NCBI GenBank assembly: GCA_964590105.1
Contig: CAZPYM010000001.1
Location: forward strand, 76,768 to 140,767
Source: an uncultured Gammaproteobacteria bacterium
Lineage (GTDB): Bacteria; Patescibacteriota; Patescibacteriia; UBA11705; JABHMO01
DNA length: 64,000 nucleotides
Direction of reading: 5' to 3'
In this document: positions 9,008 to 63,051 of the stretch, in pieces
Layout of the letters: the number at the start of each line of letters is the position of its first letter
Position numbering within the stretch: the first letter of the stretch is position 1
Made by a program: the position numbers and the translations under genes
Notes under the pieces: model-generated
The model's database searches: none
Told to the model about the DNA's origin: nothing
The model's input: only the letters and a program-made list of their open reading frames with translations

Positions 9008-9625
9008 ATGGAAGGCAAAAAATTCGTCACTATTTCCGGCAATATCGGCATCGGCAAATCAACACTGACAAAGAAGTTGGCGGATTATTATGGTTTTAAA
9101 CAATATCTGGAGCCAGTGGCGGAAAATCCTTATTTGGAAGATTTTTACAAGGACATGAAAAAATGGGCCTTTCATTCGCAAATGTATTTTCTTGGCAAGC
9201 GATTGCAGGATCATTACACTTTGGTTGTGGATAAACATTCGGTGATCCAGGACAGATGCATTTACGAGAACGCGGAAATTTTTGCCAAATATTTGCATCG
9301 GCGCGGATTTATTTCCAAGCGAGACTGGAAAGTGTATCAAACTATTTATAAAACCTTTACCCGCGTTTTGCCGGCGCCGGATCTGGTTATTTATTTAAAA
9401 GCTTCAACAGACAAAATAATGCAGCGAATAGAAAAGCGCGGCCGCGAATTTGAAAAAGGAATTTCCAAGCGCTATATTGAAGACTTGAATAATCTGTATG
9501 ATGACTGGGCGGGTAATTTTAAATTGTCGCAAGTTATTATTATTAATTATGATGATCTGGATCTAAAAAATAATGCCATTGATTTTGAGAACTTTTTGTC
9601 GGTGGTGAATGAGTGTTTGAAATAA
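9008..9625 (+). CDS. deoxynucleoside kinase (dCK/dGK/dAK family)
   Basis: P-loop ISGNIGIGKSTL and dNK-family motifs (for example ERC..); start moved to MEGKKF so it clears the upstream terminator. Confidence 0.7.
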   Translation: MEGKKFVTISGNIGIGKSTLTKKLADYYGFKQYLEPVAENPYLEDFYKDMKKWAFHSQMYFLGKRLQDHYTLVVDKHSVIQDRCIYENAEIFAKYLHRRGFISKRDWKVYQTIYKTFTRVLPAPDLVIYLKASTDKIMQRIEKRGREFEKGISKRYIEDLNNLYDDWAGNFKLSQVIIINYDDLDLKNNAIDFENFLSVVNECLK

Positions 9626-12255: not shown

Positions 12256-12642
12256 ATGGTTCGGGAAAATATTGCGGCCAAGTCTATTAAATTTATTTTA
12301 AGGGATTTGGTGCTGGACATTTTATTATGGCCGATCTGGTGGTATGGCGTGGGACTCAAAACCGCTTTTGGTAAGATGGGGGAGACGATTTCTCAGGGGA
12401 ATAGAGAATTGGCTCTCAGCGTTTGGGTAAAAAATTTATTTAAGCCAATGTTTGGCCAGTACGACTGGCAGGGCAGGATAATAAGTTTTTTCATGCGTGT
12501 TTTTCAAATTATTTTTCGTTTTTTGCTTTTTATGTTTTGGATAATATTTTCGGCAGTAGTTTTTTTGATCTGGTTTTTGCTGCCGATTTTTTTAATATCT
12601 CAAATCTTGTTAAATCTGGGATTGTTCGATAAATTAATATGA
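12256..12642 (+). CDS. hypothetical small multi-TM membrane protein
   Basis: The ORF-track start (12205) lies inside the promoter (TGTGGTATAAT at 12212..12222), so the start is moved to MVRENI at 12256. Confidence 0.45.
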   Translation: MVRENIAAKSIKFILRDLVLDILLWPIWWYGVGLKTAFGKMGETISQGNRELALSVWVKNLFKPMFGQYDWQGRIISFFMRVFQIIFRFLLFMFWIIFSAVVFLIWFLLPIFLISQILLNLGLFDKLI

Positions 12643-15392
12643 GCGATAAAAATAATTATTTAGTTTGTACCGAATGCGGCGGAACCGGCCAGGTCGAAGG
12701 AAATGTTTGCAATGTTTGCCGCGGACTCGGCGTGGTGTTGTTTTTGAACGACAAAGTTTTGTATTGGGGCAAGCATTATGACGCGCTGAATATTGCTTAC
12801 GACAAGATAACAACAAAGTTTAAAATCATTTATAATCTGGCGTTGGGACTAATCGGGCTGTCAGGGCTTGCGGTAATGGTTTACTATGGCTATCAGGACA
12901 ATTTTGTTGCATTTTTTTCTTATAAATACTGGTTAACGCCGAGCAGTGAAAAATTATATTTTTGGCTGACGCTTTTGATTGATTTGTATTTATATTATCG
13001 ACTGGAGCAGGAAGTGTCTTTGAAATACAGAGTAATGACTAAGAAATTTCAGTCAGGAATTGGCTCGGTTGCAGGAATGATTGATTGGGAAAGTATCAGT
13101 AAAATGAAAAAAGGAGAAATGGTTGACATCTCCGATACTTTTACCGGGGAAGCGAAAAAAGCAGTGCAAGCGAGCTTTGAGCTGGCCTGCCACTTTGAAC
13201 ACGGGGAGGTTTTGAGGGTTCATTTTTTTGGTATTTTATTTCAATTTGATAAATCAGCTATTATTCTAGCGCGGCTCGGTATAAACTTTGAACAGCTAAA
13301 ACAAAAGATCAGCAGATTTTTGTCCAGAAGCATTGTCAGCCGGCCGGGGATCCCCGGGCTGTCAGCTGAGTTATTAAAGTTGCTTTTGGCGGCTTATGCG
13401 GAAGCATATTCATCCAATAAAGACAAAGTTGATTTGCCGGAAATGGCGCTGTCTTTGGCCAATCCCGAGATCGTTGAAAAAGATAAACTTGATGAAGTTG
13501 AAGAAATATTAGTTGATTTTGATTTAAATTATCAAAAAGTAATAAATGTTGTTGCCTGGATCAGGATTCAAGAACAAATGCGCAGCAACTGGCAGAGATT
13601 TCGCGGGCGGGCTAGATATAAGCCAAAGTCAGGCATGGATAGAGCCATGACAGCGATCGCCACGCCTCTGCTTGACAAGTTTAGCGAAGACCTGACCGTT
13701 CTGGCCAAGTACGGGCAATATTTTCCTTGCATCGGCCGCGCTGACGAATTTGAAAAGATTTTCAGAGTCATTGAAGGCTCAAGACAAGGAGTGCTTTTGA
13801 TAGGAAATCAGGGAGTCGGTCGCACAACGATTTTGCAGGGGCTGGCTGGGCGCATGGCTTCAGAAGATGTGCCGGAATTATTGCAAGACAAAAGATTGGT
13901 CAGCCTGAACGTAGCCAGCTTACTGGCCGGCGTTGACGCGAGCGGCGCAGAGCAGAGATTACTTTATATTATTGATGAAGTGATTCGTTCCGGCAATATT
14001 ATTTTAGCGGTGGAAAATATCCACAATTTGCATGGCATCACAGCCGGCGGTGAGAACAGTCTAGATTTATCCGAGGTCTTTGCCCAGTTGCTGTCCAAAC
14101 ATTTATTTTATTGTCTGGCCACGACCACGCCTGACGGTTATGTAAATACGATTGAAAACAAAACATTGGATGCGGCTTTTCAGATTGTTAAAATTGATGA
14201 ATTGGAATTAAACGACGCAATTCAAGTATTGGAAGCAAAAAGCGGGCCGATTGAATATCAAAATAATATTTATTTTTCATATTCGGCAATAGAAAAAGCA
14301 GTAGTTTTGTCTTCCAGGTACATTCATGACAAATATTTGCCTGAAAAAGCAATCGGTATATTGGAACAGAGCGCCATTAAAGTAAAACAAGAAAGGGGTG
14401 TGGATAAAGTCGTGTTGGGTGAAGACGTGGCTGAAGTTATTTCCAGTATGACCAAGATTCCTCTGACTCAAGTGACGCAAAAAGAAAGCGAAAAACTTTT
14501 GAATATGGAAGACAGAATTCACGAGCGCATGGTTGATCAGGAAGAAGCGGTAAGTCTGGTGGCTGCCAGTCTGCGCCGGGCGCGGGCTGAATTGCGCGAA
14601 GGCAAGAGGCCGATCGCCAGCTTGCTGTTTCTCGGGCCGACCGGTGTTGGAAAAACCGAGCTGGCCAAAACAGTTGCAGAAGTTTATTTTAGCAATGAAA
14701 ATTCCATGATCCGCATCGACATGTCAGAATATCAGGAACAGTCGAGCATCGGCCGTTTAATCGGCCATGGTTCTAGCGCCGGCATTTTGACCGAGCAGGT
14801 GCGCAAAGCGCCATTTAGCTTGGTTCTCTTTGATGAGATAGAAAAAGCGCATCCCGATATTCTAAATTTATTTTTGCAGGTGCTGGACGATGGCCGGCTG
14901 ACTGACGCGCGCGGACGAACAATTGATTTCACCAGTACGATTATTATTATGACTTCCAATGCCGGCGCGCAATATATTCAGGATCAGATTAGAAAAGGCG
15001 AAGCCATTGAAAAAATAAAAGATTATTTGATAAATGAAGAATTAAAACAACATTTTCGGCCGGAATTTCTAAATCGTTTCGACGGCGTGGTTGTTTTCAA
15101 GCCTCTGTCAATGGTCGACGTGATCAAGATTGCTCGACTGATGATAAATAAAATTACTGCGCGATTAAAAGAAAAAGGAATTGAATTCAGCGTTACGGAC
15201 AGCGCAATCGCCGAGTTGGCTGAACTGGGTTTTGATCCAAAATTCGGCGCTCGGCCATTGCGCCGCACTATCCAGGAGCGGGTTGACGACGCACTGGCCA
15301 ATAAGATTTTAAAAGGCGAACTTGGCAGGCGGGATCGTGTAGTTATGGACGTCGGTGGAGAGTTACAAATTGAAAAAGCCGAGAAATTATAG
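12639..15392 (+). CDS. ClpC/ClpB-like AAA+ chaperone with an N-terminal DnaJ-type zinc ribbon plus TM segment(s), a degenerate D1 ATPase and an intact D2
   Basis: N-terminal CTECGGTGQ…CNVCRGLG, then hydrophobic helices, then Clp_N-like repeats. D1 Walker A reads GNQGVGRTT and Walker B ILAVENIHNL (both non-canonical); D2 Walker A GPTGVGKTE, Walker B LVLFDEIEKAH, and a sensor/arginine region. Confidence 0.7.
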   Translation: MSDKNNYLVCTECGGTGQVEGNVCNVCRGLGVVLFLNDKVLYWGKHYDALNIAYDKITTKFKIIYNLALGLIGLSGLAVMVYYGYQDNFVAFFSYKYWLTPSSEKLYFWLTLLIDLYLYYRLEQEVSLKYRVMTKKFQSGIGSVAGMIDWESISKMKKGEMVDISDTFTGEAKKAVQASFELACHFEHGEVLRVHFFGILFQFDKSAIILARLGINFEQLKQKISRFLSRSIVSRPGIPGLSAELLKLLLAAYAEAYSSNKDKVDLPEMALSLANPEIVEKDKLDEVEEILVDFDLNYQKVINVVAWIRIQEQMRSNWQRFRGRARYKPKSGMDRAMTAIATPLLDKFSEDLTVLAKYGQYFPCIGRADEFEKIFRVIEGSRQGVLLIGNQGVGRTTILQGLAGRMASEDVPELLQDKRLVSLNVASLLAGVDASGAEQRLLYIIDEVIRSGNIILAVENIHNLHGITAGGENSLDLSEVFAQLLSKHLFYCLATTTPDGYVNTIENKTLDAAFQIVKIDELELNDAIQVLEAKSGPIEYQNNIYFSYSAIEKAVVLSSRYIHDKYLPEKAIGILEQSAIKVKQERGVDKVVLGEDVAEVISSMTKIPLTQVTQKESEKLLNMEDRIHERMVDQEEAVSLVAASLRRARAELREGKRPIASLLFLGPTGVGKTELAKTVAEVYFSNENSMIRIDMSEYQEQSSIGRLIGHGSSAGILTEQVRKAPFSLVLFDEIEKAHPDILNLFLQVLDDGRLTDARGRTIDFTSTIIIMTSNAGAQYIQDQIRKGEAIEKIKDYLINEELKQHFRPEFLNRFDGVVVFKPLSMVDVIKIARLMINKITARLKEKGIEFSVTDSAIAELAELGFDPKFGARPLRRTIQERVDDALANKILKGELGRRDRVVMDVGGELQIEKAEKL

Positions 15393-29980: not shown

Positions 29981-31345
29981 ATGAATTTAGAGAATACAAA
30001 AAAAGTTTTTATAAGCGGCATTGGCGGCATCGGCGTTTCAGCCCTGGCGCGGTTTTTTATTAGCAAAAGAATTGAAGTTGTTGGCTCTGATTCAGAAAAG
30101 TCGGAGATAACTGAAGCGTTGGAAAAAAGAGGCATTAGAATTTATTACGATCAAAAAGCGGAAAATGTTACTTTTGCCAATGACTTGTTTGTTTATTCGG
30201 CAGCTGTTCCTCTTGATAATCAGGAAAGAAAAAAGGCCAAAGAACTCGGGCTCCCGCAAAAAAGTTATTTTGAAGTTCTGGGCGAGATCAGCCGGCTTTA
30301 TAACACGGTGGCGGTTTCCGGCACTAATGGCAAATCAACAACCACGGCCATGATTGCCGGCATTTTGCTCAAGGCTAGGAAAGATCCGACCGTGATCCTT
30401 GGCTCTTGTTTTGAAAAGTTGGACAACAATTTTCGCGCCGGCGCGTCAGACCTTTTTGTTGTCGAGGCCTGCGAATATCGGGCGCACATGCTCCTGCTTC
30501 ATCCTCAAACAATCGTTCTGACAAATATTGAGGAGGATCATTTGGATTTTTACAAAGACATCAATCATATTGTGCAGACATTTCAACAGTATGTAAAAGG
30601 GCTTCGTTCGGAAGACAATTTATTGGTAATGAACAGCGATGATGTAAATATCCGGAAAATGGCTTTGCCGAAATGCAAAATTGTGCGATTCGGATTGATC
30701 GGCGGCACTGACGTGTGGGCTGACAATATCCGCAAATTGCCGGGTAAGCAAATTTTTAATGTTATTTATTACGGCCAAAATATCGGTGAATTTGAGCTCA
30801 GCGTGCCGGGTGATTTTAATATTTATAATGCGCTTGGCGCCATTGCCTATTGCCTGACTCTGAATATTTCGATTGGCGAGGTGAAAGAAGCGATTCGCGA
30901 GTTCAGGGGAATCTGGCGGCGATTTCAAATTATCAAAGACAAAGAAATAACTGTGATTTCTGATTACGCTCATCACCCGACCGCTATTAGAGAAACAATT
31001 AAGGGCGCACGGGAATTTCTACCGGGCCGCCGCGTGGTGGCGGTTTTCCAGCCGCATCAGCGCGATAGAACAAAAAAGCTATTGGCTGAATTTGCCAAAA
31101 GTTTTGATTTGGCTGATGCAGTGATTTTGTCGGAAATATATGATGTTGCCGGCCGCGAGCAGGAGATTGCTATTAGTTCAAATGATTTGGCGGGGATTAT
31201 GAAAAAAGAAAAACCAAGTAAGCAGATATTTTTTGTCAAAGATCTGAATGAAACAAAAGAAAAAATTAAAGAGATTGTAAAAGATGAAGATATTGTTTTG
31301 GTAATGGGGGCGGGGGATATTTATAAGATTGTTAAGGAAATTTAA
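29981..31345 (+). CDS. murC: UDP-N-acetylmuramate--L-alanine ligase
   Basis: ISGIGGIGVSALARFF Rossmann N-terminus, Mur ligase Walker A GTNGKSTT, and a C-terminal Mur domain. Confidence 0.8.
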   Translation: MNLENTKKVFISGIGGIGVSALARFFISKRIEVVGSDSEKSEITEALEKRGIRIYYDQKAENVTFANDLFVYSAAVPLDNQERKKAKELGLPQKSYFEVLGEISRLYNTVAVSGTNGKSTTTAMIAGILLKARKDPTVILGSCFEKLDNNFRAGASDLFVVEACEYRAHMLLLHPQTIVLTNIEEDHLDFYKDINHIVQTFQQYVKGLRSEDNLLVMNSDDVNIRKMALPKCKIVRFGLIGGTDVWADNIRKLPGKQIFNVIYYGQNIGEFELSVPGDFNIYNALGAIAYCLTLNISIGEVKEAIREFRGIWRRFQIIKDKEITVISDYAHHPTAIRETIKGAREFLPGRRVVAVFQPHQRDRTKKLLAEFAKSFDLADAVILSEIYDVAGREQEIAISSNDLAGIMKKEKPSKQIFFVKDLNETKEKIKEIVKDEDIVLVMGAGDIYKIVKEI

Positions 31346-32103: not shown

Positions 32104-33072
32104 ATGGCTTGGTATAATATGGATATGAAAGAGCAATTAATGAAAAAAATAGGTCTGGAAGTTTTGGAAAATGAATTATTGGCAAATTACACTACTTTTA
32201 AAATTGGCGGCCCAGCCAAATTTTTTGTTAGAGTGAACAACAAAGCTGATTTATTTAAGACATTAAAAGCAGTCAAGGAATTTGATCTGCCTTTTTTTAC
32301 TTTGGGTGGCGGCAGTAATGTCCTCGTGGCGGACAAAGGTTTTGATGGTCTAGTTATCAAATTGCATGACGGGCAGGCTGAATTTTCCGGGCAAACTGTT
32401 AAAATTTTTGCCGGCCATAGCTGGGCCGGATTGATTCGGGAATGTGTAAAAAAGGGGCTTGGCGGGCTGGAATTTGGCGCCAATATTCCGGGCACGGTTG
32501 GCGGTGCTGTTTACGGCAATGCGGGAGCCTATGGCAAGGGAGCCGGCGATTATATTCAAAGCGTGGAAGTCATTTGTCTGGATGACAATGAAATCAATCT
32601 TAAAATTTTAACCAAAGATGATTGCGCGTTCAATTACCGCGACAGTATTTTTAAAAAACATAAAGATTGGATTATCAGTGAAATTGTTTTTAAGCTTGAG
32701 CGCGATGAAAAAGCCATTGAAAAATTAAAACAAATTGAAAATGAATGGCAGAGTCGCTGTGACAAACAGCCACTGAATCTTCCGAGCGCCGGTTGTTCAT
32801 TCAAAAATGTCATATATACCGGCGAGCTTGATCGTTTCAAAGAATGGGAAATAAAGGGCAAATTGCCGGCCGCCAAGTTTATTGAAGATGCGGATTTAAA
32901 GGGTATGAAAATTGGCGGTGCCTTGGTTTCCGATAAGCACGCAAATTTTATTGTTAATACCGGCAATGCCAAAGCGGACGATATTGTCCAGCTGATCAGC
33001 GTGATCAAAACCAGAGTGCGCAATGAGTTTGGCGTTCAGCTGGAAGAAGAGATTCAGTATGTGGGGTTTTGA
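32104..33072 (+). CDS. murB: UDP-N-acetylenolpyruvoylglucosamine reductase
   Basis: FAD-binding domain (TTFKIGGPAKFF…GGGSNVL) and a C-terminal MurB domain; the exact start is uncertain (32104, 32119 or 32125). Confidence 0.8.
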   Translation: MAWYNMDMKEQLMKKIGLEVLENELLANYTTFKIGGPAKFFVRVNNKADLFKTLKAVKEFDLPFFTLGGGSNVLVADKGFDGLVIKLHDGQAEFSGQTVKIFAGHSWAGLIRECVKKGLGGLEFGANIPGTVGGAVYGNAGAYGKGAGDYIQSVEVICLDDNEINLKILTKDDCAFNYRDSIFKKHKDWIISEIVFKLERDEKAIEKLKQIENEWQSRCDKQPLNLPSAGCSFKNVIYTGELDRFKEWEIKGKLPAAKFIEDADLKGMKIGGALVSDKHANFIVNTGNAKADDIVQLISVIKTRVRNEFGVQLEEEIQYVGF

Positions 33073-46860: not shown

Positions 46861-47559
46861 ATGGCAAAAATTAGATTAAATAAATATATTGCAGATTGCG
46901 GAATAGCTTCGCGCCGGAGTGCGGAGCGTTTTATATTACAAGGGTTAGTAAAAGTAAATGGAGATTTGGTAACAGAACTTGGGACAAAGATTGACGTGGA
47001 AAATGACCGCGTCGAAGTCAGCGATCAACTAATCAACCAATCAACCAATCAACCAGTTGTCCTGATGCTGAATAAACCGGCCGGTTATGTTTGTACATCA
47101 AGAAAATTTAAAGGTGAGAAAAATATTTTGGATTTAATTAATCTCGAACAGCGGGTTTATCCTGTCGGTCGTCTGGATAAGGATTCAACAGGCCTCCTGC
47201 TCCTGACCAACGACGGCGATTTGGCTTTGAAATTAACGCACCCTCGTTACGAAAAGGAAAAAGAGTATGAAGTGGAAGTTGATCATGAGATTAGCAGTGA
47301 ATTTATCGATGAAATGCAACAGGGCGTCACGTTGGAGGACGGAACAACCTTGCCGGCAAAGGTAAAACAGCTTTCTTATACTGCGTTTTCAATTGTTTTG
47401 GGACAGGGAAAAAAACGGCAGATCAGGCGGATGTGCCAGGAACTTGGGTACCGGGTAGTGGGATTAAATCGAGTCCGTATCAATAAACTGGAGCTCGGAG
47501 ATTTGGCTGTCGGCGATTATCGGATTTTATCGGAAAAAGAAATTGCTTTATTAAAATAG
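46861..47559 (+). CDS. RsuA/RluB-family 16S/23S rRNA pseudouridine synthase
   Basis: S4 domain N-terminus and the catalytic GRLDKDSTGLLLLTNDG motif. Confidence 0.75.
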   Translation: MAKIRLNKYIADCGIASRRSAERFILQGLVKVNGDLVTELGTKIDVENDRVEVSDQLINQSTNQPVVLMLNKPAGYVCTSRKFKGEKNILDLINLEQRVYPVGRLDKDSTGLLLLTNDGDLALKLTHPRYEKEKEYEVEVDHEISSEFIDEMQQGVTLEDGTTLPAKVKQLSYTAFSIVLGQGKKRQIRRMCQELGYRVVGLNRVRINKLELGDLAVGDYRILSEKEIALLK

Positions 47560-53417: not shown

Positions 53418-53425
53418 CTATGTAT

Positions 53426-54895
53426 ATGAAGTTAAAATTTTGTGGTGCAGATCAAAACGTTACCGGCTCCCGACATCTCCTCGAGATCAATGGCAAGAAG
53501 ATACTTTTGGATTGCGGGATGTTTCAGGGCGGCGATCGAGAAAAGACGCGCCAGTTGAACGAAGAATTTCTTTTTGAGCCGCAGGAAGTTGATTATCTTT
53601 TGCTTTCGCACGCTCACATTGACCATTGTGGCGCTATTCCGCGGCTGGTTAAGCTTGGTTTCAAAGGAAAAATAATTTCAACCTCAGCCACCCGTGAATT
53701 GACCGAGGTGATGCTACTCGATAGTTCGCACATTCAAATGCAGGACGCGAAATATGCTGGCCGGCATTCGCAAAAAACAGCTGAACCGCTTTATACGGAA
53801 AAAGATGTCAGGGCGGCCATGCAGCTTTTTGAAAGTTATGAATATTTTCAAAAATTCAAATTATGCGAAAACGTCTGGGTGACTTTTTACGACGCCGGTC
53901 ATGTGCTCGGCTCGGCTATAATGGCGCTTGATTTCAAGGATGACGGCGAGCAAAGGCGGCTGGTTTTTACCGGCGATCTTGGCCGCAAATACATGCCGAT
54001 CTTAAATGATCCCTATCAGATTGATCATGCGGATATTTTAATTATTGAGAGCACTTACGCCAGCCATTTGCACGATCCCATTGATTCGGTTTATGAGGAA
54101 ATAACTTGGGCGATCAATGATGTGGTCAAACGCGGCGGCAAAATAATTGTGCCCGGGTTTTCTTTTGAAAGAACGCAGGCGTTTGTTTATGTTTTGCACC
54201 AGCTTTATAATCAGAAGAAAATTCCAAAGATTCCCATTTTTGTGGACAGCCCATTGTCAACGGAAATTTCTGAAGTGTTTGATAAACATCGGGACTATTA
54301 TGACAATGAAACTTTTCGCGATTTTCTCAACAAAAAACAAAGTCCGTTTTATTTTAACGAGATAAAATATACCAAGTCGGTGGAAGAATCCAAAGCGCTC
54401 AATTATTATAATAAGCCGTGCATAATTATTTCCGCCTCCGGTATGTGCGATGCCGGTCGTATTGTGCATCATTTGAAAAATCACATGAGCGACCCAAAAA
54501 ATATGATTTTGGTCATTGGTTTCATGGCTCGTGGCACTCGTGGTCGGCAGATTGTCGAGGGCAAGCCCAGGATCAAGATTTTTGGCGAGCAATATGCTCT
54601 GCGCGCTGACGTGGTGGTTCTAAATTCGTTTTCCGCGCACGCGGATAAGCTAGAGCTGCTCGAATACATCAGAAATATCAGCGATTTAAAAAATATTTTC
54701 GTTGTTCATGGCGAGGAAACCGAATGCGCGGTACTGCGCGACAATATCTATAATATTTTGAAATTAAAATGTCGTGTGGATGTGGTGGATATGGGTGAGG
54801 AGTTTGAAGTAACTTCCAAGGGCACTGAGAGTATGCTCGGCAAACGCAGGAAAAAATATTTTGCTGAAATGGAAAGTTTAAAGCTGAAGACATAG
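53426..54895 (+). CDS. beta-CASP family MBL-fold RNA-metabolising hydrolase (RNase J / CPSF-like)
   Basis: HAHIDHCG metallo-beta-lactamase motif, beta-CASP region and a C-terminal RNA-specificity domain; start could be 53420 or 53426. Confidence 0.7.
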   Translation: MKLKFCGADQNVTGSRHLLEINGKKILLDCGMFQGGDREKTRQLNEEFLFEPQEVDYLLLSHAHIDHCGAIPRLVKLGFKGKIISTSATRELTEVMLLDSSHIQMQDAKYAGRHSQKTAEPLYTEKDVRAAMQLFESYEYFQKFKLCENVWVTFYDAGHVLGSAIMALDFKDDGEQRRLVFTGDLGRKYMPILNDPYQIDHADILIIESTYASHLHDPIDSVYEEITWAINDVVKRGGKIIVPGFSFERTQAFVYVLHQLYNQKKIPKIPIFVDSPLSTEISEVFDKHRDYYDNETFRDFLNKKQSPFYFNEIKYTKSVEESKALNYYNKPCIIISASGMCDAGRIVHHLKNHMSDPKNMILVIGFMARGTRGRQIVEGKPRIKIFGEQYALRADVVVLNSFSAHADKLELLEYIRNISDLKNIFVVHGEETECAVLRDNIYNILKLKCRVDVVDMGEEFEVTSKGTESMLGKRRKKYFAEMESLKLKT

Positions 54896-55059: not shown

Positions 55060-55998
55060 ATGGACAACAACATCACTCAAACCTACCGTGACATCAAGTT
55101 AATCAAAATTCAGGGTGCGACCAATATTGCTCTGGCCGTTGGCAAAGCTTTGAAAAAATATGCCAAGGATTTAACAGCAATAAGCAAGCGCGATTTTGTA
55201 CAGAAAATTTCCAGCGCCGGCAAGTATTTGGTTGGCGCGCGAGACACCGAACCCATGGCTGACAATGTTGTTGAGTTTATTGTTTATCAATTGAACAAAA
55301 CAAAAACGACTGAAGTCAGGGAATTAAAAAGTGTTCTGGCTGATTCAATTGATTATTTTTTTGATTTGGTAAATAAAAATGATTTACAGATTATTAAACA
55401 CGGCGAGCGGTTGATCAAATTCGGCGACAAAGTTTTTACTCATTGCCATTCCTCAACGGTTATGAAGGTTTTGCTGGCCGCTAGAAAAAACAAAAAGCGC
55501 TTTGAAGTTTTTCAAACTGAAACCCGGCCGCTTTATCAGGGGCGCAGAACTGCGGCCGAACTTCTGAAAAATAAGATTAAAGATACTATGGTTGTTGATT
55601 CGGCCGCGCCGTATTTAATCAGCAAAATAAGCGGCCCTAGATTTCAAATTGACAAATTAATAATCGGCTGTGACGCTATCAGCCGCGACGGATCATGCGT
55701 CAATAAGGTCGGCAGTTTCGGCCTGGCGCTCGTGGCTTTTTTGAATAAAGTGCCGGTTTATGTTGTGACGCAAGCTTTGAAAATAAATGAAGAAGCTAAA
55801 AATTTAAAGGCGATTAAAATTGAACAGCGTAGCGCCCGCGAAGTCTGGAATGGCGCGCCGAAAGATTTGAAAATTTATAATCCGGCTTTTGATAAAGTGC
55901 CGGTCGAACTAATTACCGGGTATATTTGCGAATTTGGGGTAGTGAAACCGGAAAACCTGATCAAGAAAATCAAAAAAGATTATAGTTGGTTGTGGTAA
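55060..55998 (+). CDS. ribose-1,5-bisphosphate isomerase (eIF-2B alpha/beta/delta family, e2b2)
   Basis: eIF-2B-like fold with …IIGCDAISRDGSCVNKVGSFGLALVA…; sits in the cluster with RuBisCO III and AMP phosphorylase. Confidence 0.65.
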   Translation: MDNNITQTYRDIKLIKIQGATNIALAVGKALKKYAKDLTAISKRDFVQKISSAGKYLVGARDTEPMADNVVEFIVYQLNKTKTTEVRELKSVLADSIDYFFDLVNKNDLQIIKHGERLIKFGDKVFTHCHSSTVMKVLLAARKNKKRFEVFQTETRPLYQGRRTAAELLKNKIKDTMVVDSAAPYLISKISGPRFQIDKLIIGCDAISRDGSCVNKVGSFGLALVAFLNKVPVYVVTQALKINEEAKNLKAIKIEQRSAREVWNGAPKDLKIYNPAFDKVPVELITGYICEFGVVKPENLIKKIKKDYSWLW

Positions 55999-56049
55999 AA
56001 AAAAGATAAACATTTTTTATTTTACTTTATAATCATTAACTAAAATATT

Positions 56050-56898
56050 ATGTCACATGAAATAATGCCAATCTTTGAAGGATATGGTGAAAAAGACAAA
56101 GAAATTTTTGGAGGAGAATTTAAATTATTAAATTTAGGTAAGAAAGAGGGTAGCTTTAAGCCAACAGATCCCAAATTTTATGAAAGGATAGAGGGTGTTA
56201 GAAAAAAATTAGGATTAAAGTACATTTTTGCACCAAGCTTAGCTTTTACAAAACGAACAGCATCAATGACTAACAAAGGTGAGGAAAAGTTTATGTTTGG
56301 ATCAGAAGGCAAGGATGATAAAGTCGCTACTGAAGGTATTATGAGAACAGAAGAAAAAGCTGATGGCGGAATAGTTTTTTTGGATGATTTAGAAAAGAAA
56401 GGTATAAATCCAAATGAAGTTGGAATCGCTGGTTTTAATGCTGATTGTCCATTTATTGTTGGTTATGATGAAAAGAAAAGAGCGATGTTCATGCTTCATG
56501 CTGGCTTAGCGTGTCTGCAAAAGACAGGTGAAAGAAATCATGAAACTATATTCGAAAAGGTAGTGAAGGATCATGATTTAGATCCAAAAAACATTAAAAT
56601 ATTTGTAACCGGAGGAATTCAAAAGTGTTGTTATGGGCGAGATGATCAGGTTTTTCCTGATGTTATGAAAGCCTGGGGCGTGCGTTTCGGTTCAGTTGCT
56701 ACCGAAGGTTCCAGAGAAGGTCAAACTTCAATGAATTTGTTAGCTTTGATTTACAATGATTTACTACGAGTAGGTGTTAATTCCGATAATATTGATGTGA
56801 ATGAAAAGTGTACCTGTTGTGATGGTGAACATTGGAGTAATGTTAAAGGTGATCAAGAAAGAAATTTAGTTTTGGTTAGACCAAACTTTTCTGAATAA
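56050..56898 (+). CDS. YfiH/PgeF (DUF152, LACC1-like) family purine-nucleoside enzyme candidate; AT-richer than its neighbours
   Basis: …FNADCPFIVGYDEKKRAMFMLHAGLACL… aligns with the YfiH …TADCLPVL…AAAHAGWRGL… core; C-terminal …EKCTCCDGE… matches …DRCTYTENE…. Confidence 0.4.
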   Translation: MSHEIMPIFEGYGEKDKEIFGGEFKLLNLGKKEGSFKPTDPKFYERIEGVRKKLGLKYIFAPSLAFTKRTASMTNKGEEKFMFGSEGKDDKVATEGIMRTEEKADGGIVFLDDLEKKGINPNEVGIAGFNADCPFIVGYDEKKRAMFMLHAGLACLQKTGERNHETIFEKVVKDHDLDPKNIKIFVTGGIQKCCYGRDDQVFPDVMKAWGVRFGSVATEGSREGQTSMNLLALIYNDLLRVGVNSDNIDVNEKCTCCDGEHWSNVKGDQERNLVLVRPNFSE

Positions 56899-56937
56899 AA
56901 CAAAAAAAATCCCCAATTGTCAAGTGGGAAAAAGTGA

Positions 56938-57363
56938 GTGGAGATTTATATGAAAATCAAATGTATTATTTTTGATTTTTACAATGTCTTGTACCCTTTT
57001 ACTGCTGAAGCTGAAAAGGTTGTTGAATATTGCCGAAGTAAAGGATTAAAGCTGGCGGCGGTTTCCAGTTTATCCCCAGAAAAAGTTGATGAAATTGCCA
57101 AACATTATAAAATAGATACAGTGCTGGCTTCCTGGAACTTTGGTCTGCACAAAACTCAGCCTGAAATTTATCAGCGATTGCTCGGCCGGCTGGAACTAAA
57201 GGGTTGCGAATGCCTGATGGTTGACGATGAGCAGATCCGGCTTTCGGCGGCGAAAAGCTGCGGAATAAATACGGTTTGGTTGAAATTGGTGGAAGGTGAT
57301 AAACTTGAAACAACGGATTGCGTAATCAGCGAACTAGGGGAACTAAGTGAATTAGCGAATTAG
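56938..57363 (+). CDS. small HAD-superfamily hydrolase-like protein (variant motif I, DFYN instead of DxDG)
   Basis: IIFDFYNVL (motif I-like) and MVDDEQIRLSAAKSCGINTV (motif IV-like). Confidence 0.45.
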   Translation: MEIYMKIKCIIFDFYNVLYPFTAEAEKVVEYCRSKGLKLAAVSSLSPEKVDEIAKHYKIDTVLASWNFGLHKTQPEIYQRLLGRLELKGCECLMVDDEQIRLSAAKSCGINTVWLKLVEGDKLETTDCVISELGELSELAN

Positions 57364-57395
57364 CGAATTGGAGAATTGGCGAATTGGAGAGTGGA
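57325..57395 (+). repeat. tandem 8-9-bp repeats (GAACTAAG/GAATTAGC/GAATTGGC…) spanning the HAD gene's 3' end and the intergenic region
   Basis: gaactaggggaactaagtgaattagcgaattagcgaattggagaattggcgaattggagag. Confidence 0.4.
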
Positions 57396-57659
57396 AATAA
57401 AATATAAATAAGCCGAGGAGCTCCGAGCGGAGCGAGGAGCGACGAGGCGGCCGTCCGCCGGGACATACGCTTTCCCCCTCCCGACGGAGCGCAAGGGAAA
57501 GCGGAAATAATTATTGAATTGAAAAGCGGAGTACAGGGAGGGGGACAAAGGGGGTGGGTTCTTGCGGTAAGCGATTATATGCGGCGGATTCGTGAAAGGG
57601 CGGTTTCAGAAATTTCGATGAACTTAATTAACCTAATTAATCTTAATTAACTTTATTAT

Positions 57660-58943
57660 ATGCCCCACGTCGGATTTATTGACCCCATGTATCAGCCAAA
57701 TTACAAAAAAGAGATTGTGGCCACTTTTCATATGGAGCCGGAAGTGGCTTTTAATGAAGCGGCGGAGGCAGTGGCCGGTGAAAGTTCAATTGGTTCGTGG
57801 ACTGATTTATCCACGCTAAAGCCGGAAGTTGCCCAAAAAATTAAAGCCGTGGTTTTTTATTTAAATCAAAAACAAAAAATTATTAAAATCGCTTATCCTT
57901 TGGATTTGTTTGAACTCGGAAGCATTCCACAATTTCTTTCGAGCGTGGGCGGTAATGTTTTTTCAATGAAAGCCGTGAAAAATCTGCGATTGTTGGATGT
58001 GGAATTCCCGGAAAAATATATTAAAAGTTTTCAAGGGCCGGCGCTTGGCATTGAGGGTATTAGAAAAATATTGAAAAATAAAGACCGGCTTATTCTTGGC
58101 AGTATTATTAAACCCAAAGTCGGATTAACTGCGGCTGAACACGCGGAGGTTGCCTATGAAGTGTGGCGGAATGGAATTGACCTGGTAAAAGACGATGAAA
58201 ATCTGACCGACATGGTTTTTAATCGATTTGAAGAGCGGGTAAAAAGAACTTTGGCCAAAAGAAAAAAAGCAGAAGAGGAAACAGGAAAAATTAAAATATA
58301 TGCAGTGAATATTACCGCACCGGCAGATATCATGCTGGAACGAGCCAAGTTTGTGAAGGCGCAGGGCGGCCGTTGTGTAATGGTGGATATAATTTCAACC
58401 GGCCTCGACAATGTTCAGTATTTACGTAAGCAAAATTTAGGTTTGATAATTCACGGGCACCGAGCGGGCCATAGCACTTTTACCCGCAATCCGCGGCACG
58501 GTATTACCATGCTCGTCATTGCCAAACTTGCCAGATTGGCTGGAGTTGATCAGCTTCATACTGGCACAGTCGTTGGCAAGATGGAAGGTTCAGTGGATGA
58601 TGTCTTGACGACTAATGAGCTGTTGCGGGAAGACTGGCAGCATTATCATGTTCTTCAAGAAAATTGGACGTCATTAAAACCAACCATGCCCATTGCTTCA
58701 GGCGGACTGCATCCGGGCCTTTTGCCAAAACTGGTTGAAATCCTTGGCAGCGATTTAATCGCTAATTTTGGCGGCGGGGTGCATGGACATCGAGATGGCT
58801 CGGCAGCCGGCGCTCGCGCCTGTTTTCAGGCGGCTGAGGCCATTGCAGCGGGCAAATCACTGCGCGATCAGGCCAAATTTCATCCTGAACTGAAAATAGC
58901 GCTGGATCAGTGGGGCGGTGTGAAATATAAATATGAGAGGTGA
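57660..58943 (+). CDS. rbcL: ribulose-1,5-bisphosphate carboxylase large subunit, form III (II/III-like) type
   Basis: RuBisCO large-subunit catalytic motifs (…GGLHPG…, …GGGVHGHRDGSAAGARA…); about 427 aa with no small-subunit gene nearby. Confidence 0.8.
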   Translation: MPHVGFIDPMYQPNYKKEIVATFHMEPEVAFNEAAEAVAGESSIGSWTDLSTLKPEVAQKIKAVVFYLNQKQKIIKIAYPLDLFELGSIPQFLSSVGGNVFSMKAVKNLRLLDVEFPEKYIKSFQGPALGIEGIRKILKNKDRLILGSIIKPKVGLTAAEHAEVAYEVWRNGIDLVKDDENLTDMVFNRFEERVKRTLAKRKKAEEETGKIKIYAVNITAPADIMLERAKFVKAQGGRCVMVDIISTGLDNVQYLRKQNLGLIIHGHRAGHSTFTRNPRHGITMLVIAKLARLAGVDQLHTGTVVGKMEGSVDDVLTTNELLREDWQHYHVLQENWTSLKPTMPIASGGLHPGLLPKLVEILGSDLIANFGGGVHGHRDGSAAGARACFQAAEAIAAGKSLRDQAKFHPELKIALDQWGGVKYKYER

Positions 58944-59133
58944 AGAGGATATAGGATGAACAGGATAAATAGGAGATTAGAAACTGGAAATCAGAAATTG
59001 GGGTTACTGTCTTTTCTTTCTATTTCACATCTCACGTCTCACTTCTCACTTCTCATGTCTTACTACTTTTTCGCGTTTGTAATTTGTTATTTGCTTGTAA
59101 TTTGTTATTTGTAATTTGTAATTTTATTATTTT

Positions 59134-60633
59134 ATGTCGTATTATCTAAAATGTAAAAAACTGGATTTTTCCACCGGCGGGCCATTGGTGGTTCTTTTGA
59201 ATGAAGAAGAAGCGCAAAACTACGGTATTTATCCGGGAGACAGAGTTCAAATCGGCTGGGACAAAAAAAAGAAAGAGATTGCCGACGTGGATGTTTCGGA
59301 TTCGAAAGTCCAACCTGGCGAGATCGGATTATTTGAGGAAATTTGGAAAAAACACAATGTTGAAAGCGGCGACGTGGCTGAAATAACGTTGGAATCGCGG
59401 CCGCTGTCAATGGAAACTCTGCGAAAAAAAATGCTTGGCAAGCCGGCCAATTACAAAGAAATGTATGCGCTGATCAAAGATATTGCTGACGGCAGAATGG
59501 GTAAAATTGAAACAACATATTACGCGGCCAGCGGATTTGTTAAACCTTTTTCTGACCAGGAACTTTATTTTGTGGCCAAGGCCATGGCGGAAACCGGTGA
59601 ACAATTCAATTATAAAAAAATAAAAGTGGCAGACAAACATTCGGTCGGCGGCTTGGCCGGCAATAGGATGACGCCGATTATTGTTTCAATAATTGCTTCA
59701 CTTGGAATTTACATTCCGAAAACATCTTCTCGCGCCATCACTTCGCCTGCAGGAACTGCGGATATGATGGAAGTTCTTTGCCCCGTAAGTTTTACCTTGC
59801 CGGAAATAAAAAAAATTGTGCGCAAAACAAAAGGCTGCCTGGTCTGGGGTGGCGGACTGCGCATGGCGCCGGCTGATGACAAAATTATTAAAGTTTCCCG
59901 GCCGTTGGCAGTGGAATCATATGATAAAATGATTGTCAGTATTATTGCCAAGAAAGTGGCGACCGGTGTTGACTATTTAGTTGTGGATGTTCCTGTAGGC
60001 GCGACCTGTAAAGTGCCGGACATGAAACATGCCAGGCAAATTGAGAAAAAGTTTCATGCTCTGTGCAAAAGATTTAATATTAAAGTAAAAGTGGTAATAA
60101 CTCCAGCCAAAGAACCGATCGGTCGGGGAATAGGACCGGCGCTCGAAGCTAGGGATGTTCTGCGCGTTCTTCAGCAACATAAATTCAAGCCGCTTGATCT
60201 GGAAAATAAATCTTGCAAGCTGGCCGGCAAGCTTCTCGAATTAAAAGGGTTTTGTCGCGCTGGCAAGGGAATTTTAATCGCCAAGCAGCAAATAAAAAAC
60301 GGCGAGGCTTGGAAAAAAATGAATCAGATTATTATTGCTCAGGGAGGCAAAGTAGATATTAATTCCGAAGAAGTAATGCAGGAAGTGGAACGCTATGAGA
60401 TTCATGCCAAAAGAAAAGGGAAAATAGCTTTTGTTGATAATAAAGAAATAAATGAGGTGTGCATGAACCTGGGCGCGCCGATTGATAAATACGCCGGTAT
60501 TCATACGCACGTGAGATATGGCCAAAAAGTGAAAAAAGGTCAGAAGCTTTTCACCATGTACGCCAGCAGTCATGATCGCCTAAAACTGGGCGTGGCCGCC
60601 GCCGGTAACAATATAATTTTCCACATCAATTAG
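59134..60633 (+). CDS. AMP phosphorylase (thymidine-phosphorylase family with N-terminal extension)
   Basis: Pyrimidine-nucleoside phosphorylase core (…HSVGGLAGNRMTPIIVSIIASLG…TSSRAITSPAGTADMMEV…) plus an N-terminal extension, next to RuBisCO III and e2b2. Confidence 0.75.
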   Translation: MSYYLKCKKLDFSTGGPLVVLLNEEEAQNYGIYPGDRVQIGWDKKKKEIADVDVSDSKVQPGEIGLFEEIWKKHNVESGDVAEITLESRPLSMETLRKKMLGKPANYKEMYALIKDIADGRMGKIETTYYAASGFVKPFSDQELYFVAKAMAETGEQFNYKKIKVADKHSVGGLAGNRMTPIIVSIIASLGIYIPKTSSRAITSPAGTADMMEVLCPVSFTLPEIKKIVRKTKGCLVWGGGLRMAPADDKIIKVSRPLAVESYDKMIVSIIAKKVATGVDYLVVDVPVGATCKVPDMKHARQIEKKFHALCKRFNIKVKVVITPAKEPIGRGIGPALEARDVLRVLQQHKFKPLDLENKSCKLAGKLLELKGFCRAGKGILIAKQQIKNGEAWKKMNQIIIAQGGKVDINSEEVMQEVERYEIHAKRKGKIAFVDNKEINEVCMNLGAPIDKYAGIHTHVRYGQKVKKGQKLFTMYASSHDRLKLGVAAAGNNIIFHIN

Positions 60634-60698: not shown

Positions 60699-61433
60699 AT
60701 GGTAGAAGAATTACATCCTGTGAGCAGGAAATCAGGAGAAAAAACCAATTTTTTTCTGGGATTTTTTTCAGGCATGGCCTTGCTGGCCGTGGTCGCTTTT
60801 TTTGTTTTGTTAATCATGGTTTTTGTTGGCAAACAGCCTGTTGATTTGGCTGTTAACGCAGAAGATAACACTGCGTTGGCCGCGGAAGAGCAGCAAGCGC
60901 CGGAAGCAGCGCCAGTTCCGCCGGTTACTGATGCGGATTACTTTATCGGCGGTAAAAATGCCAAAGTTGTATTGATTGAATACACTGATTTTGAGTGTCC
61001 CTATTGCCTGCGCCATCATGACACAGCCAAGCAGATCAGAGAAACGTATGGGGACAAAATAAAGTTTGTCGGTAGAAATTTTCCTTTGTCTTTTCACCCC
61101 GAGTCTCAGAAAGCTGCAGAAGCGGTGGAATGCGCCGGCGAGCAGGGTAAATACTGGCAAATGTATGACGCGGCTTTTGCGGCTAATGAAGCTGGTGAAA
61201 TGGGCGTGGAAAAATGGAAGTCCGAAGCTGTAAAACTCGGATTAAATGCCAGTAAATTTAATGATTGTTTGGATTCGGGAAAAACCGTTTCTAAAATTGA
61301 TGAGCAAATGGCCAGCGCCAGCGCAGCTGGAGTTGACGGAACGCCAGCGACTTTTGTCAATGGGCAATTGGTCAGCGGTGCTTTGCCGTTTGAAAGTTTC
61401 AAGCAGATTATTGACGGATTACTTGGAGAATAA
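60699..61433 (+). CDS. DsbA-like thioredoxin-fold thiol-disulfide oxidoreductase with an N-terminal TM anchor
   Basis: CPYC active site; TM LALLAVVAFFVLLIMVFV. Confidence 0.7.
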   Translation: MVEELHPVSRKSGEKTNFFLGFFSGMALLAVVAFFVLLIMVFVGKQPVDLAVNAEDNTALAAEEQQAPEAAPVPPVTDADYFIGGKNAKVVLIEYTDFECPYCLRHHDTAKQIRETYGDKIKFVGRNFPLSFHPESQKAAEAVECAGEQGKYWQMYDAAFAANEAGEMGVEKWKSEAVKLGLNASKFNDCLDSGKTVSKIDEQMASASAAGVDGTPATFVNGQLVSGALPFESFKQIIDGLLGE

Positions 61434-62640: not shown

Positions 62641-63051
62641 ATGAAAATTTATTTTGCGGGTTCCATTAGAGGCGGGAGAGACGATGCGGATTTATATTTT
62701 AAAATAATTGAGCATTTGAAGCGTTACGGTGAGGTTTTAACAGAACATGTCGGGGACAAGAACCTCAAGCTTCAAGGTGAAGATGGTCTCACAAATGAAT
62801 ATATTCATAATCGCGATCTTGAATGGGTTTTGGAGGCTGCTGTTTTAGTTGCTGAAGTTTCGACTGCGTCGCTTGGTGTTGGCTATGAAATTGGGAGAGC
62901 TATTGAGAATGGGAAAAGAGTCCTATGTCTGCATCGTTGTCAAGACGGAAAAAGACTTTCTGCCATGATTGCCGGTTCTCCTGATGTAACTAACGCAGAA
63001 TATAGAAACATAGACGAGGCTATAGAAATAATTGATGATTTTTTAAAATAA
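62641..63051 (+). CDS. nucleoside 2-deoxyribosyltransferase-family protein (DNPH1/Rcl-like 2'-deoxynucleoside 5'-phosphate N-hydrolase candidate)
   Basis: MKIYFAGSIRGGRDD… matches the DNPH1 YFCGSIRGGR signature; a catalytic Glu-containing …GVGYEIG… segment follows. Confidence 0.6.
   Translation: MKIYFAGSIRGGRDDADLYFKIIEHLKRYGEVLTEHVGDKNLKLQGEDGLTNEYIHNRDLEWVLEAAVLVAEVSTASLGVGYEIGRAIENGKRVLCLHRCQDGKRLSAMIAGSPDVTNAEYRNIDEAIEIIDDFLK

Follow-up and report, generated by a model that had tools for sequence, protein, structure and literature searches.

Introduction

The AMP (pentose-bisphosphate) salvage pathway of archaea and CPR bacteria employs an AMP phosphorylase (deoA), a ribose-1,5-bisphosphate (R15P) isomerase (e2b2) and a form III RuBisCO (rbcL), and the pathway and its gene clusters are reportedly also described in Sato 2007, Aono 2015 and Wrighton 2016. 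In CPR, the co-location of these genes as e2b2-rbcL-deoA is the usual order and already published (Jaffe et al. 2019). Genes for HAD proteins occur alongside RuBisCO or e2b2 in known systems as well, for example in haloarchaea, where the RuBP phosphatase shares an operon with the R15P isomerase (PMC9700705). Bacterial PgeF serves as an editing amidase on MurC products; the purine nucleoside phosphorylase (PNP) activity of bacterial homologues is weak, non-physiological and independent of the conserved residues, 500-fold more enzyme was needed and a deoD mutant was not rescued (Garde et al. 2025, PMC12280929). For FAMIN and YfiH, Cader et al. 2020 reported activities as adenosine phosphorylase, PNP and deaminase.

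Here we report on a gene block at 55060..60633 of a 64,000-nt stretch of patescibacterial DNA, which is called the window below.

The salvage pathway genes and the spacers around rbcL

The ORF check of the window recovered all five ORFs of the block, all on the + strand, exactly where a preliminary description had placed them, and Pfam and NCBIfam searches agreed with its family assignments. The e2b2 product (55060..55998) matches PF01008 (IF-2B, E 1.6e-64) and has ribose-1,5-bisphosphate isomerase as top NCBIfam match, with 200 bits for TIGR00511 (under the cutoff of 314) and 194 bits for TIGR00524 (over the cutoff of 186). Its nearest solved structures are the R15P isomerases of T. kodakarensis and P. 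horikoshii (3a11, 5yfj; E 1e-34), of which it keeps the aligned Cys of THCHS and the Asp of G-x-D. RbcL (57660..58943) reaches 525 bits against the type III RuBisCO model TIGR03326 (cutoff 497), and the closest solved structure is the form III enzyme of P. horikoshii (2cwx, E 2e-126), followed by 1geh from T. kodakarensis. The carboxylase motifs KPKVG, KDDE, HGHRAGH, HTGTVVGK, SGGLH and GGGVHGH are all present, with Ser in place of T65. The enzyme belongs to form III and not to the RuBisCO-like proteins of form IV, against which the preliminary description had asked for a check. The deoA product (59134..60633) is a full-length AMP (NMP) phosphorylase that carries an N-terminal domain of the AMPpase type and scores 531 bits for NF003338 (cutoff 434) and 516 bits for TIGR03327, slightly under its cutoff of 535. 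The long starts at 57660 and 59134 are backed by alignments to archaeal structures, which begin at residue 4 of RbcL and at residue 8 of the phosphorylase (T. kodakarensis 4ga5, E 2e-102).

Family scores, structures and catalytic motifs all fit the previously proposed salvage shunt, and judged by its sequence the block represents the known CPR/archaeal gene set in ordinary form. In this pathway, the AMP phosphorylase would produce ribose-1,5-bisphosphate from nucleoside monophosphates, the e2b2 product would isomerise it to RuBP, and the form III RuBisCO would carboxylate RuBP to two 3-phosphoglycerate. The deoxynucleoside kinase (9008..9625; PF01712, E 2e-56) and the DNPH1/Rcl-like gene (62641..63051; Nuc_deoxyrib_tr PF05014, E 1.9e-13) mentioned earlier for the same window were likewise confirmed.

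Non-coding spacers lie on both sides of rbcL. The 5' spacer (57364..57659) is rich in purines and GC and contains short tandem repeats: an 8-nt GAATTRGMG repeat occurs in six copies that overlap the 3' end of the HAD gene, and CTTAATTAA repeats lie 5' of rbcL. Its fold z-score is -1.7, and the Rfam search of this spacer gave no match. It is missing from relatives, in which the gap measures 5-30 nt. The 3' spacer (58944..59133) contains the microsatellite-like tandem repeats TCTCAC and TTTGTAATTTGT.

The two inserted proteins

The first inserted gene (56050..56898) encodes a divergent YfiH/PgeF-fold protein. The PF02578 profile (Cu-oxidase_4/DUF152, E 5.6e-15) is matched by residues 122-263 only, and the PgeF model TIGR00726 gives 40 bits, well under its cutoff of 141. 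Over its full length, the AF2 model (pLDDT 85) has PgeF, YfiH and YlmD as top Foldseek matches (E 1e-14, 12-17% identity). The suggested placement in the YfiH/PgeF/LACC1 family is hence well founded, and the motifs ADCPFIV and HAGLACL quoted for it are both present. It was also correctly described as AT-richer: its GC is 0.345 and its GC3 of 0.226 is the lowest among the 41 window ORFs of at least 200 aa (mean 0.435, sd 0.066), 3.2 sd below the mean. The protein belongs to an 'F-type' branch with Phe at the position of E. coli H71. According to a residue map to E. coli YfiH, D89, D106, C107, H124 and R235 of E. coli PgeF are invariant in 14/14 core members, and 30 columns, catalytic residues included, are invariant across 17 YfiH-like sequences.

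The second inserted gene encodes a capless mini-HAD of 137 aa (56950..57363). Most likely it starts at the ATG at 56950, in agreement with orthologue N-termini; the alternative GTG at 56938 had been used in the preliminary description, whose call of a small HAD-like gene is borne out by PF00702 (E 1.7e-12) and PF13419, both matched in the C-terminal half of the profiles only. The variant motif I was also rightly noticed, as it reads FDFYNV with Tyr at the Asp+2 position. Among four orthologues motif I is D-[FL]-[YF]-[NG]-V-L-Y-P, and motifs II (S/T), III (K) and IV (DD) are kept; these and the motif I Asp are conserved down to 33% identity. The AF2 model (pLDDT 86) consists of the Rossmannoid core alone and aligns with L-2-haloacid dehalogenases, cis-epoxysuccinate hydrolases and CbbY in their core region (TM 0.75 for the query, ~0.45 for the targets). 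A word-indexed search recovered a single homologue. Because the general acid/base Asp and the cap domain are both missing, the protein is not a good candidate for a phosphatase specific to a sugar phosphate or nucleotide, and a role as small-molecule phosphatase on its own is unlikely.

Gene order in relatives

As had been noticed before, the usual order is interrupted here by two genes between e2b2 and rbcL. The arrangement e2b2-YfiH-like-HAD-rbcL is shared by the window and L030, the order in L007 and L024 is e2b2-YfiH-like-rbcL-deoA, and L009 has e2b2-YfiH-like-LRR660-rbcL-deoA, with an unrelated 660-aa LRR-like gene in the slot between the YfiH-like gene and rbcL. In L026/L027 (two samples), the order is e2b2-YfiH-like-HAD-deoA without rbcL, and in Falkowbacteria CG10_39_11 it is bCASP-YfiH-like-HAD-DsbA without pathway genes at the locus. 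The HAD gene, missing in three rbcL-bearing genomes, accompanies the YfiH-like gene rather than rbcL, and its start overlaps the YfiH-like stop in L026 and L030. Altogether, the YfiH-like gene is found between e2b2 and rbcL in ~6 genomes with short intergenic gaps. Its orthologues at this site are 48-74% identical, hence the insertion is old, and in relatives they lie 2-10 nt from their neighbours, which makes co-expression with the pathway likely. The L024 copy shows a frameshift in an A10 homopolymer, probably an assembly error; the downstream frame retains every motif.

The block is anchored upstream by a beta-CASP metallo-beta-lactamase RNase gene (53420..54895, + strand; Pfam Beta-Casp E 7.7e-39, Lactamase_B_6, RMMBL; NCBIfam Cas14-type/aCPSF1-like matches all under cutoff), which in every syntenic relative lies directly 5' of e2b2 or of the YfiH-like gene, and downstream by a gene for a DsbA-like thioredoxin-fold protein (60699..61433, + strand; PF13462 E 8e-29), located 3' of the block in all of them. 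From the beta-CASP RNase to DsbA, the whole block is syntenic in one Falkowbacteria-like lineage. Since all pathway-adjacent cases belong to this block, they are counted as one evolutionary event, and the pathway adjacency of the inserts is no more strongly conserved than that of the unrelated flanks.

Outside the block, the order is murC-YfiH-like-murB in L013, L016 and L017, with an overlap of 11 nt with the murC stop in L013/L016, and in the more distant F-type relatives L031 and L033 the gene is convergent with murD, which is over its equivalog cutoff. The association with mur genes thus comprises two syntenic arrangements only, one of them convergent rather than co-directional. In an NJ tree without support values, the mur-context clade falls inside the pathway-context group. 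Because murC and murB are present, the window genome can be expected to make peptidoglycan.

Possible functions of the inserted genes

With modest confidence, we favour the explanation that a known pathway occurs here in a lineage-specific gene order, and that the insert is an independent module with a PgeF-like peptidoglycan-precursor hydrolase; a peptidoglycan-related module serving cell-wall upkeep is most likely. In one Falkowbacteria-like Patescibacteria lineage, this module, which sits between e2b2 and rbcL, would work independently of the salvage pathway; it comprises the divergent YfiH/PgeF-fold protein, often followed by the translationally coupled capless HAD-like protein, and the two may act together. 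The YfiH-like protein would most likely be a Cys-His-Asp hydrolase for a muramyl or peptidoglycan-precursor-type substrate (a PgeF-like editing/amidase role), with a substrate-binding groove presumably altered by the Phe for H71 and the loss of the UDP contacts. Rather than a joint metabolic task, its position in the cluster would reflect synteny by descent and, probably, co-transcription in a compact genome. What we observe are gene identities, folds, residue patterns and gene orders; from these we infer all enzymatic activities and that the two modules are independent.

In the preliminary description, both inserts were regarded as accessory nucleoside or nucleotide steps: a FAMIN/LACC1-type purine nucleoside phosphorylase/deaminase, and a HAD nucleotidase or sugar-phosphate enzyme, which would let the AMP pathway accept more substrates, e.g. 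by conversion of nucleosides into ribose-1-phosphate and bases. Membership in the YfiH/LACC1 superfamily, the nucleoside activities reported by Cader et al. 2020, the position conserved in ~6 genomes and the kinase and DNPH1-like enzyme in the window are consistent with it, and the loss of H71 is compatible with a nucleoside role, as PNP activity is possible without the H-C-H residues. However, we consider it doubtful: this activity is weak and non-physiological in bacterial homologues (Garde et al. 2025, PMC12280929), the cluster has no evident enzyme from ribose-1-phosphate to ribose-1,5-bisphosphate, the pair is kept without rbcL or without e2b2, rbcL and deoA at the locus, the slot is shared by the LRR-like gene, beyond the syntenic block the gene adjoins murC/murB or murD and never nucleoside genes, and the HAD protein lacks the Asp+2 general acid and the cap. 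That adjacency to the pathway is confined to one lineage, and no better conserved there than that of the flanking genes, argues against this claim as well.

It is quite unlikely that the HAD protein is a RuBisCO-associated metabolite phosphatase such as CbbY (xylulose-1,5-bisphosphate), CbbZ (2-phosphoglycolate) or the haloarchaeal RuBP 5-phosphatase, in which last case the RuBisCO-less relatives would possess a non-carboxylating branch. Known precedents such as the haloarchaeal operon (PMC9700705), CbbY at rank 16 of the structural matches, the RuBisCO-less L026/L027 and a weak match to the RuBP 5-phosphatase model NF053830 (E 3e-6) point in this direction, but at 27 bits this last match is far under the cutoff of 330, the phosphatase acid/base Asp is missing in all four orthologues (D-x-[YF]), there is no cap domain for small-substrate selection, the gene is tied to the YfiH-like gene rather than to rbcL, also in the Falkowbacteria genome without pathway genes at the locus, and no Ru1P aldolase was seen. 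Still less probable are decaying or non-functional passengers, with the low-GC3 YfiH-like copy as recently acquired DNA. The outlying GC3, the lost cap and Asp+2, the L024 frameshift and the tiny HAD family would agree with decay, but the 30 invariant columns indicate purifying selection, the site and identity of the YfiH-like gene in relatives speak against recent arrival, the HAD motifs are conserved, and the frameshift is probably artificial.

Comparison with known systems

Compared to the CPR/archaeal AMP pathway clusters, the window encodes all three enzymes as well, and RuBisCO lies between e2b2 and deoA; the catalytic motifs are intact, and the AMPpase has its N-terminal domain. Its RuBisCO is nearest to archaeal III-b structures and is assigned to the level of form III only. 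In contrast to these clusters, two unrelated genes part e2b2 from rbcL, rbcL is flanked by repeat-rich spacers, one close relative has no rbcL at all, and at the syntenic site of another none of the three pathway genes is present.

The mini-HAD has the Rossmannoid core, nucleophile Asp and motifs II-IV in common with HAD-IA hydrolases (CbbY, CbbZ, the haloarchaeal RuBP 5-phosphatase) and L-2-haloacid dehalogenases. It differs from all of them in the absent cap, and from the phosphatases in the absent Asp+2. Its D-x-Y resembles the dehalogenase/epoxysuccinate-hydrolase branch, whereas motif IV is DD and not the S-x-N-x-x-D of dehalogenases, and all specific NCBIfam models score far under their cutoffs.

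With FAMIN/LACC1, the YfiH-like protein shares the Pfam superfamily (PF02578) and the fold, but neither the H-C-H triad nor the N-terminal FAMIN domain. To our knowledge, no residue signature of the nucleoside activity of FAMIN/LACC1 exists to test against. With the PgeF/YfiH/YlmD amidases (TIGR00726; PDB 7w1g, 7fbg, 1t8h) it shares the fold over the full length, the residues D89, D106, C107, H124 and R235, and relatives located between murC and murB or adjoining murD. Unlike in E. coli PgeF, H71, which is essential for editing there, is Phe and Q69 is Leu; the UDP-MurNAc contacts W127, R128, Y227 and R228 are Leu, Gly/Ala, Asn and Val; HAGL[GA]C stands in place of HAGWRG and SNV[KN] in place of SYRR, and an insertion of ~20 residues, located before the Asp, is modelled with low confidence. 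Because of the Phe, the replaced UDP contacts and the TIGR00726 score far under cutoff, a UDP-MurNAc-peptide substrate is not assured, and the protein may be seen as a divergent relative of PgeF.

Genes of the cluster and the predicted salvage enzymes

The five genes named in the preliminary description were all found on the forward strand at the coordinates it had given. e2b2 (55060-55998) belongs to the IF-2B family (PF01008, E 1.6e-64) and has ribose-1,5-bisphosphate (R15P) isomerase as its top NCBIfam match. It is followed by a YfiH-like gene (Y, 56050-56898), for which the proposed Cu-oxidase_4/DUF152 match was recovered (PF02578, E 5.6e-15), and by a gene for a small HAD-like protein (HAD, 56938-57363; PF00702, PF13419). 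rbcL (57660-58943) encodes a type III RuBisCO (TIGR03326, 525 bits, cutoff 497) and deoA (59134-60633) an AMP/thymidine phosphorylase, which reaches 531 bits with NF003338 (cutoff 434) and 516 bits with TIGR03327 (cutoff 535). The deoxynucleoside kinase and the DNPH1-like gene described elsewhere in the window are also present. Several samples yielded contigs with the identical cluster, including one contig of 237 kb.

The RuBisCO contains all of the motifs KPKVG, KDDE, HGHRAGH, HTGTVVGK, SGGLH and GGGVHGH, and it keeps the carbamylated Lys as well as the other carboxylase residues. The sole change in the carboxylase motifs is T65S, which is conservative and common to the relatives. Its nearest solved structures are the form III enzymes of Pyrococcus horikoshii and Thermococcus kodakarensis. 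With a TIGR03326 score above the cutoff and the carboxylase motifs retained, it is a form III enzyme, in line with the preliminary description, and not a form IV RuBisCO-like protein. The phosphorylase aligns with the T. kodakarensis AMP phosphorylase 4ga5 (E 2e-102) from residue 8 onwards and hence includes the N-terminal domain specific to AMP phosphorylases. For e2b2, the nearest solved relatives are archaeal R15P isomerases, and the catalytic residues, the Cys of THCHS and the Asp of GCDAIS, are aligned; its score with TIGR00511 is 200 bits (cutoff 314), and it passes only the broader eIF-2B_rel model.

Judged from sequence, the assignment of these predicted enzymes to the salvage of NMP to 3-PGA is secure and was already known. 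Because this pathway is well described for CPR bacteria, the locus brings no new principle. In CPR genomes, e2b2, RuBisCO and deoA are often found together on a single fragment, RuBisCO being the middle gene, and the three genes are sometimes consecutive or even fused (Jaffe et al., 2019). A link between YfiH and RuBisCO was found neither in Jaffe et al. (2019) and Wrighton et al. (2016) nor in the other literature searched.

The YfiH-like gene is indeed AT-richer than its surroundings, its GC3 of 0.226 being the lowest among the 41 long open reading frames of the window (mean 0.435, sd 0.066). We did not accept this value as proof of a recent horizontal acquisition, since the gene is syntenic in relatives at 48-74% identity; in most of them, too, its GC3 is mildly below that of its neighbours.

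The 296-nt spacer before rbcL gave no match to a riboswitch or leader RNA in Rfam at gathering or E-value thresholds and no match to phage sequences, and its fold z-score is only -1.7. Equivalent upstream gaps in relatives measure only 5-30 nt. A conserved RNA element was rejected, because an Rfam match is lacking, the fold is weak and the spacer is absent from relatives. A scan for promoters and terminators gave matches at consensus level only, and none of the gaps between the genes showed a clear terminator. Microsatellite-like tandem repeats lie on both sides of rbcL (57346-57390, 57614-57658 and 59030-59137); they comprise six copies of the 8-nt repeat GAATTRGMG, which overlap the 3' end of HAD, as well as CTTAATTAA, TCTCAC and TTTGTAATTTGT.

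Gene order in relatives

When the genes of the cluster were mapped onto 30 related loci, several arrangements within the same flanks emerged. The order e2b2-Y-HAD-rbcL of the window is also found in locus L030, and L007 and L024 have e2b2-Y-rbcL-deoA. In L009, the order is e2b2-Y-rbcL-deoA with a gene for a 660-aa protein (8845-10827), which has weak leucine-rich-repeat (LRR) matches, inserted between Y and rbcL; the slot therefore accepts unrelated genes. L026 and L027, which come from two samples, show the order bCASP-e2b2-Y-HAD-deoA-DsbA (bCASP, beta-CASP RNase), from which rbcL is cleanly absent. Finally, Candidatus Falkowbacteria CG10_big_fil_rev_8_21_14_0_10_39_11 has bCASP-Y-HAD-DsbA and lacks the pathway genes, all three of them. 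On the upstream side, these loci share a pseudouridine synthase, an ABC transporter and the beta-CASP RNase; on the downstream side, they share DsbA and a CDP-alcohol phosphatidyltransferase. Hence, the adjacency of Y to the pathway genes represents one inherited arrangement, and clearly unrelated genes have stayed next to each other at least as strongly. In a compact and strongly syntenic CPR genome, gene adjacency is weak evidence of a shared function.

Wherever HAD occurs, Y and HAD behave as a unit, and in L026 and L030 the start of HAD overlaps the stop of Y. The inserted module is old and evolves under purifying selection; its co-transcription with the neighbouring genes is probable. In L024, Y is frameshifted inside an A10 homopolymer (4690-4705). 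We rejected this frameshift as a sign that the gene is dispensable; as the downstream frame keeps every conserved motif, it is probably an assembly error and not a pseudogene.

In the rbcL-less loci (L026 4700-7495, and L027), the YfiH-like protein is 71% identical to that of the window; in L026, deoA begins only 28 nt past the end of HAD, and the order was found in two independent samples. AMP phosphorylase and R15P isomerase are thus kept at this locus without RuBisCO. The apparent clean loss of RuBisCO in close relatives that keep e2b2 and deoA bears on how this pathway is gained, lost or rerouted in the CPR.

Two further neighbours deserve mention. L007, which is without HAD, encodes 4 nt past deoA a 365-aa PI3/PI4-kinase-like protein of the SCO1664 family (11931-13028; TIGR03843, 94 bits, below the cutoff), possibly a small-molecule kinase next to the pathway. 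In every relative that has the pathway, the beta-CASP RNase gene (53420-54895 in the window) immediately precedes e2b2, at a distance of 1-20 nt in L026 and L009. The top NCBIfam matches of this RNase, a Cas14-type MBL/beta-CASP model and aCPSF1, are both below the cutoff. An RNase yielding 5'-NMPs would feed AMP phosphorylase, yet the gene is also kept in the pathway-less relative.

The YfiH-like protein and its mur contexts

An AF2 model of the YfiH-like protein (pLDDT 85), built from a 17-sequence alignment, matched 7fbg, 6dzd, 1t8h and 7w1g in Foldseek at E 1e-11 to 1e-14 and TM 0.6-0.7. All strong structural matches were PgeF, YfiH and YlmD, over the full length and at 12-17% identity. 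The score with the PgeF equivalog model TIGR00726 is 40 bits (cutoff 141), and relatives, including the murC-adjacent protein P0007, reach 34-45 bits. According to an exhaustive profile search, the core clade is small, with some five or six clusters at 50% identity that score above 240 bits, below which a gap is followed by a continuum of relatives of 235-270 aa.

Residues were mapped to E. coli YfiH in a MAFFT alignment bridged by 137 intermediates, which replaced an hhalign comparison of the subfamily profile with the single E. coli sequence that had aligned the C-terminus only, at 2% probability. The Cys107-His124-Asp89 triad, Asp106 and Arg235 are invariant in the core members (14/14), and all 14 likewise carry Phe at the position of His71 in E. 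coli PgeF. Among the 137 nearest relatives, this position is Phe in 83 and His in 40 cases, which places the protein in a sizeable non-canonical branch, here called F-type. Its members (within P0028-P0170) have Phe-Thr for His71-Gly72 and HAG[FL]RC for HAGWRG of E. coli PgeF; the protein of the window, too, has Thr at the Gly72 position. In E. coli PgeF, His71, Asp89, Asp106, Cys107 and His124 are all required for peptidoglycan editing (Garde, 2025; PMC12280929). W127, R128, Y227 and R228, which hold the UDP-MurNAc moiety in that enzyme, correspond to L, G/A, N and V in the subfamily of the window's protein. With His71 and the UDP contacts lost, the exact substrate may not be the one on which E. 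coli PgeF acts.

Outside the syntenic block, the association with mur genes covers two arrangements only: the order murC-Y-murB in three loci (L013, L016 and L017), with Y overlapping the murC stop by 11 nt in L013 and L016, and a convergent orientation with murD in two more distant relatives (L031 and L033), which are the two F-type members next to murD. Elsewhere, Y was found with a TP_methylase gene, or with a LigB-like gene and an ORF upstream that has no annotation. In the window, Y does not lie beside murC and murB, which stand 25 kb off with another gene between them. This gene, a PD-(D/E)XK_3 gene (PF13366, 31329-31866) between murC (29981-31345) and murB (32104-33072), fills the slot that is held by Y in L013, L016 and L017, and it appears disrupted, being broken up into ORFs of 110 aa and 79 aa. 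An RluD-like pseudouridine synthase gene (46861-47556) lies a few genes upstream of Y in the window and in relatives, and E. coli yfiH is directly downstream of rluD (L025 3304-5012). This proximity may be coincidental or may go back to an ancestral synteny.

The HAD-like protein

Orthologue N-termini place the start of HAD at the ATG at 56950, giving a product of 137 aa, and the Pfam profile match begins past the cap insertion point. In the model (pLDDT 86), the protein consists of the Rossmannoid core alone and is without the C1 cap domain that gives specificity for small substrates. This core can be superposed on that of haloacid dehalogenases, cis-epoxysuccinate hydrolases, CbbY and other IA members, and spans less than half of these structural matches. 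The variant motif I noted in the preliminary description reads D-[FL]-[YF]-[NG]-V-L-Y-P in four orthologues; the nucleophile Asp is present, and the Asp+2 position, the general acid/base of phosphatases, is aromatic in all four. Motifs II (AVSS), III (HKT) and IV (VDDE) are kept across orthologues. HAD scored far below the cutoffs of all specific NCBIfam models, that of the haloarchaeal RuBP 5-phosphatase among them. The family is very small: a homologue search gave one other protein, and the four orthologues came from the mapped loci. Considering motifs and model together, a role as a stand-alone specific phosphatase is unlikely, because both the cap and the acid/base residue are missing.

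Possible functions of the inserted genes

Y and HAD had been proposed to provide accessory steps for the salvage pathway. This was not borne out, as the module survives where RuBisCO and even the entire pathway are lost from the locus. We favour the view that the YfiH-like protein is a predicted Cys hydrolase related to peptidoglycan precursors. A nucleoside-salvage role of the purine nucleoside phosphorylase (PNP) type is possible at a lower probability: within this superfamily, PNP activity is independent of the conserved residues, and since mutants in these residues keep it, a residue signature for FAMIN/LACC1-type nucleoside activity does not exist. Such a role is disfavoured because the module outlives the pathway and shares its slot with an LRR protein, and because the informative contexts elsewhere involve only the two enzymes flanking the PgeF substrate. 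Bacterial homologues have a weak nucleoside phosphorylase activity, which is independent of the conserved residues and unable to replace DeoD in vivo (Garde, 2025; PMC12280929).

We regard it as rather improbable that Y and the capless D-x-Y HAD form an unrecognised two-protein enzyme of pentose-bisphosphate metabolism in this CPR lineage or, separately, that the F-type substrate is a new one. In one version of the former, the enzyme may generate or correct an intermediate that is a phosphorylated pentose; relatives such as L026, with e2b2-Y-HAD-deoA and no RuBisCO, would thereby have an outlet for RuBP that does not involve carboxylation. As to the latter, the substrate of the F-type branch may be unlike that of any characterised PgeF or FAMIN activity. 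The locus also exposes a fairly large uncharacterised YfiH/PgeF branch that is without the His reported as essential for editing, yet stands beside murC or murD. With this branch, the chemistry of PgeF can be tested directly.

Comparison with known systems

With the HAD phosphatases CbbY, CbbZ and RuBP 5-phosphatase, HAD has in common motifs II (S/T), III (K) and IV (DD), whereas the DxD of motif I and the C1 cap are missing. It shares with L-2-haloacid dehalogenase (TIGR01428) the D-x-Y motif I alone; it is without a cap, its motif IV is DD instead of S-x-N-x-x-D, and it scores 35 bits against a cutoff of 125. Compared with PgeF, the YfiH-like protein is without His71 and the UDP-MurNAc contacts and falls below the TIGR00726 cutoff, but it shares the fold, the Cys-His-Asp triad, Asp106 and Arg235.
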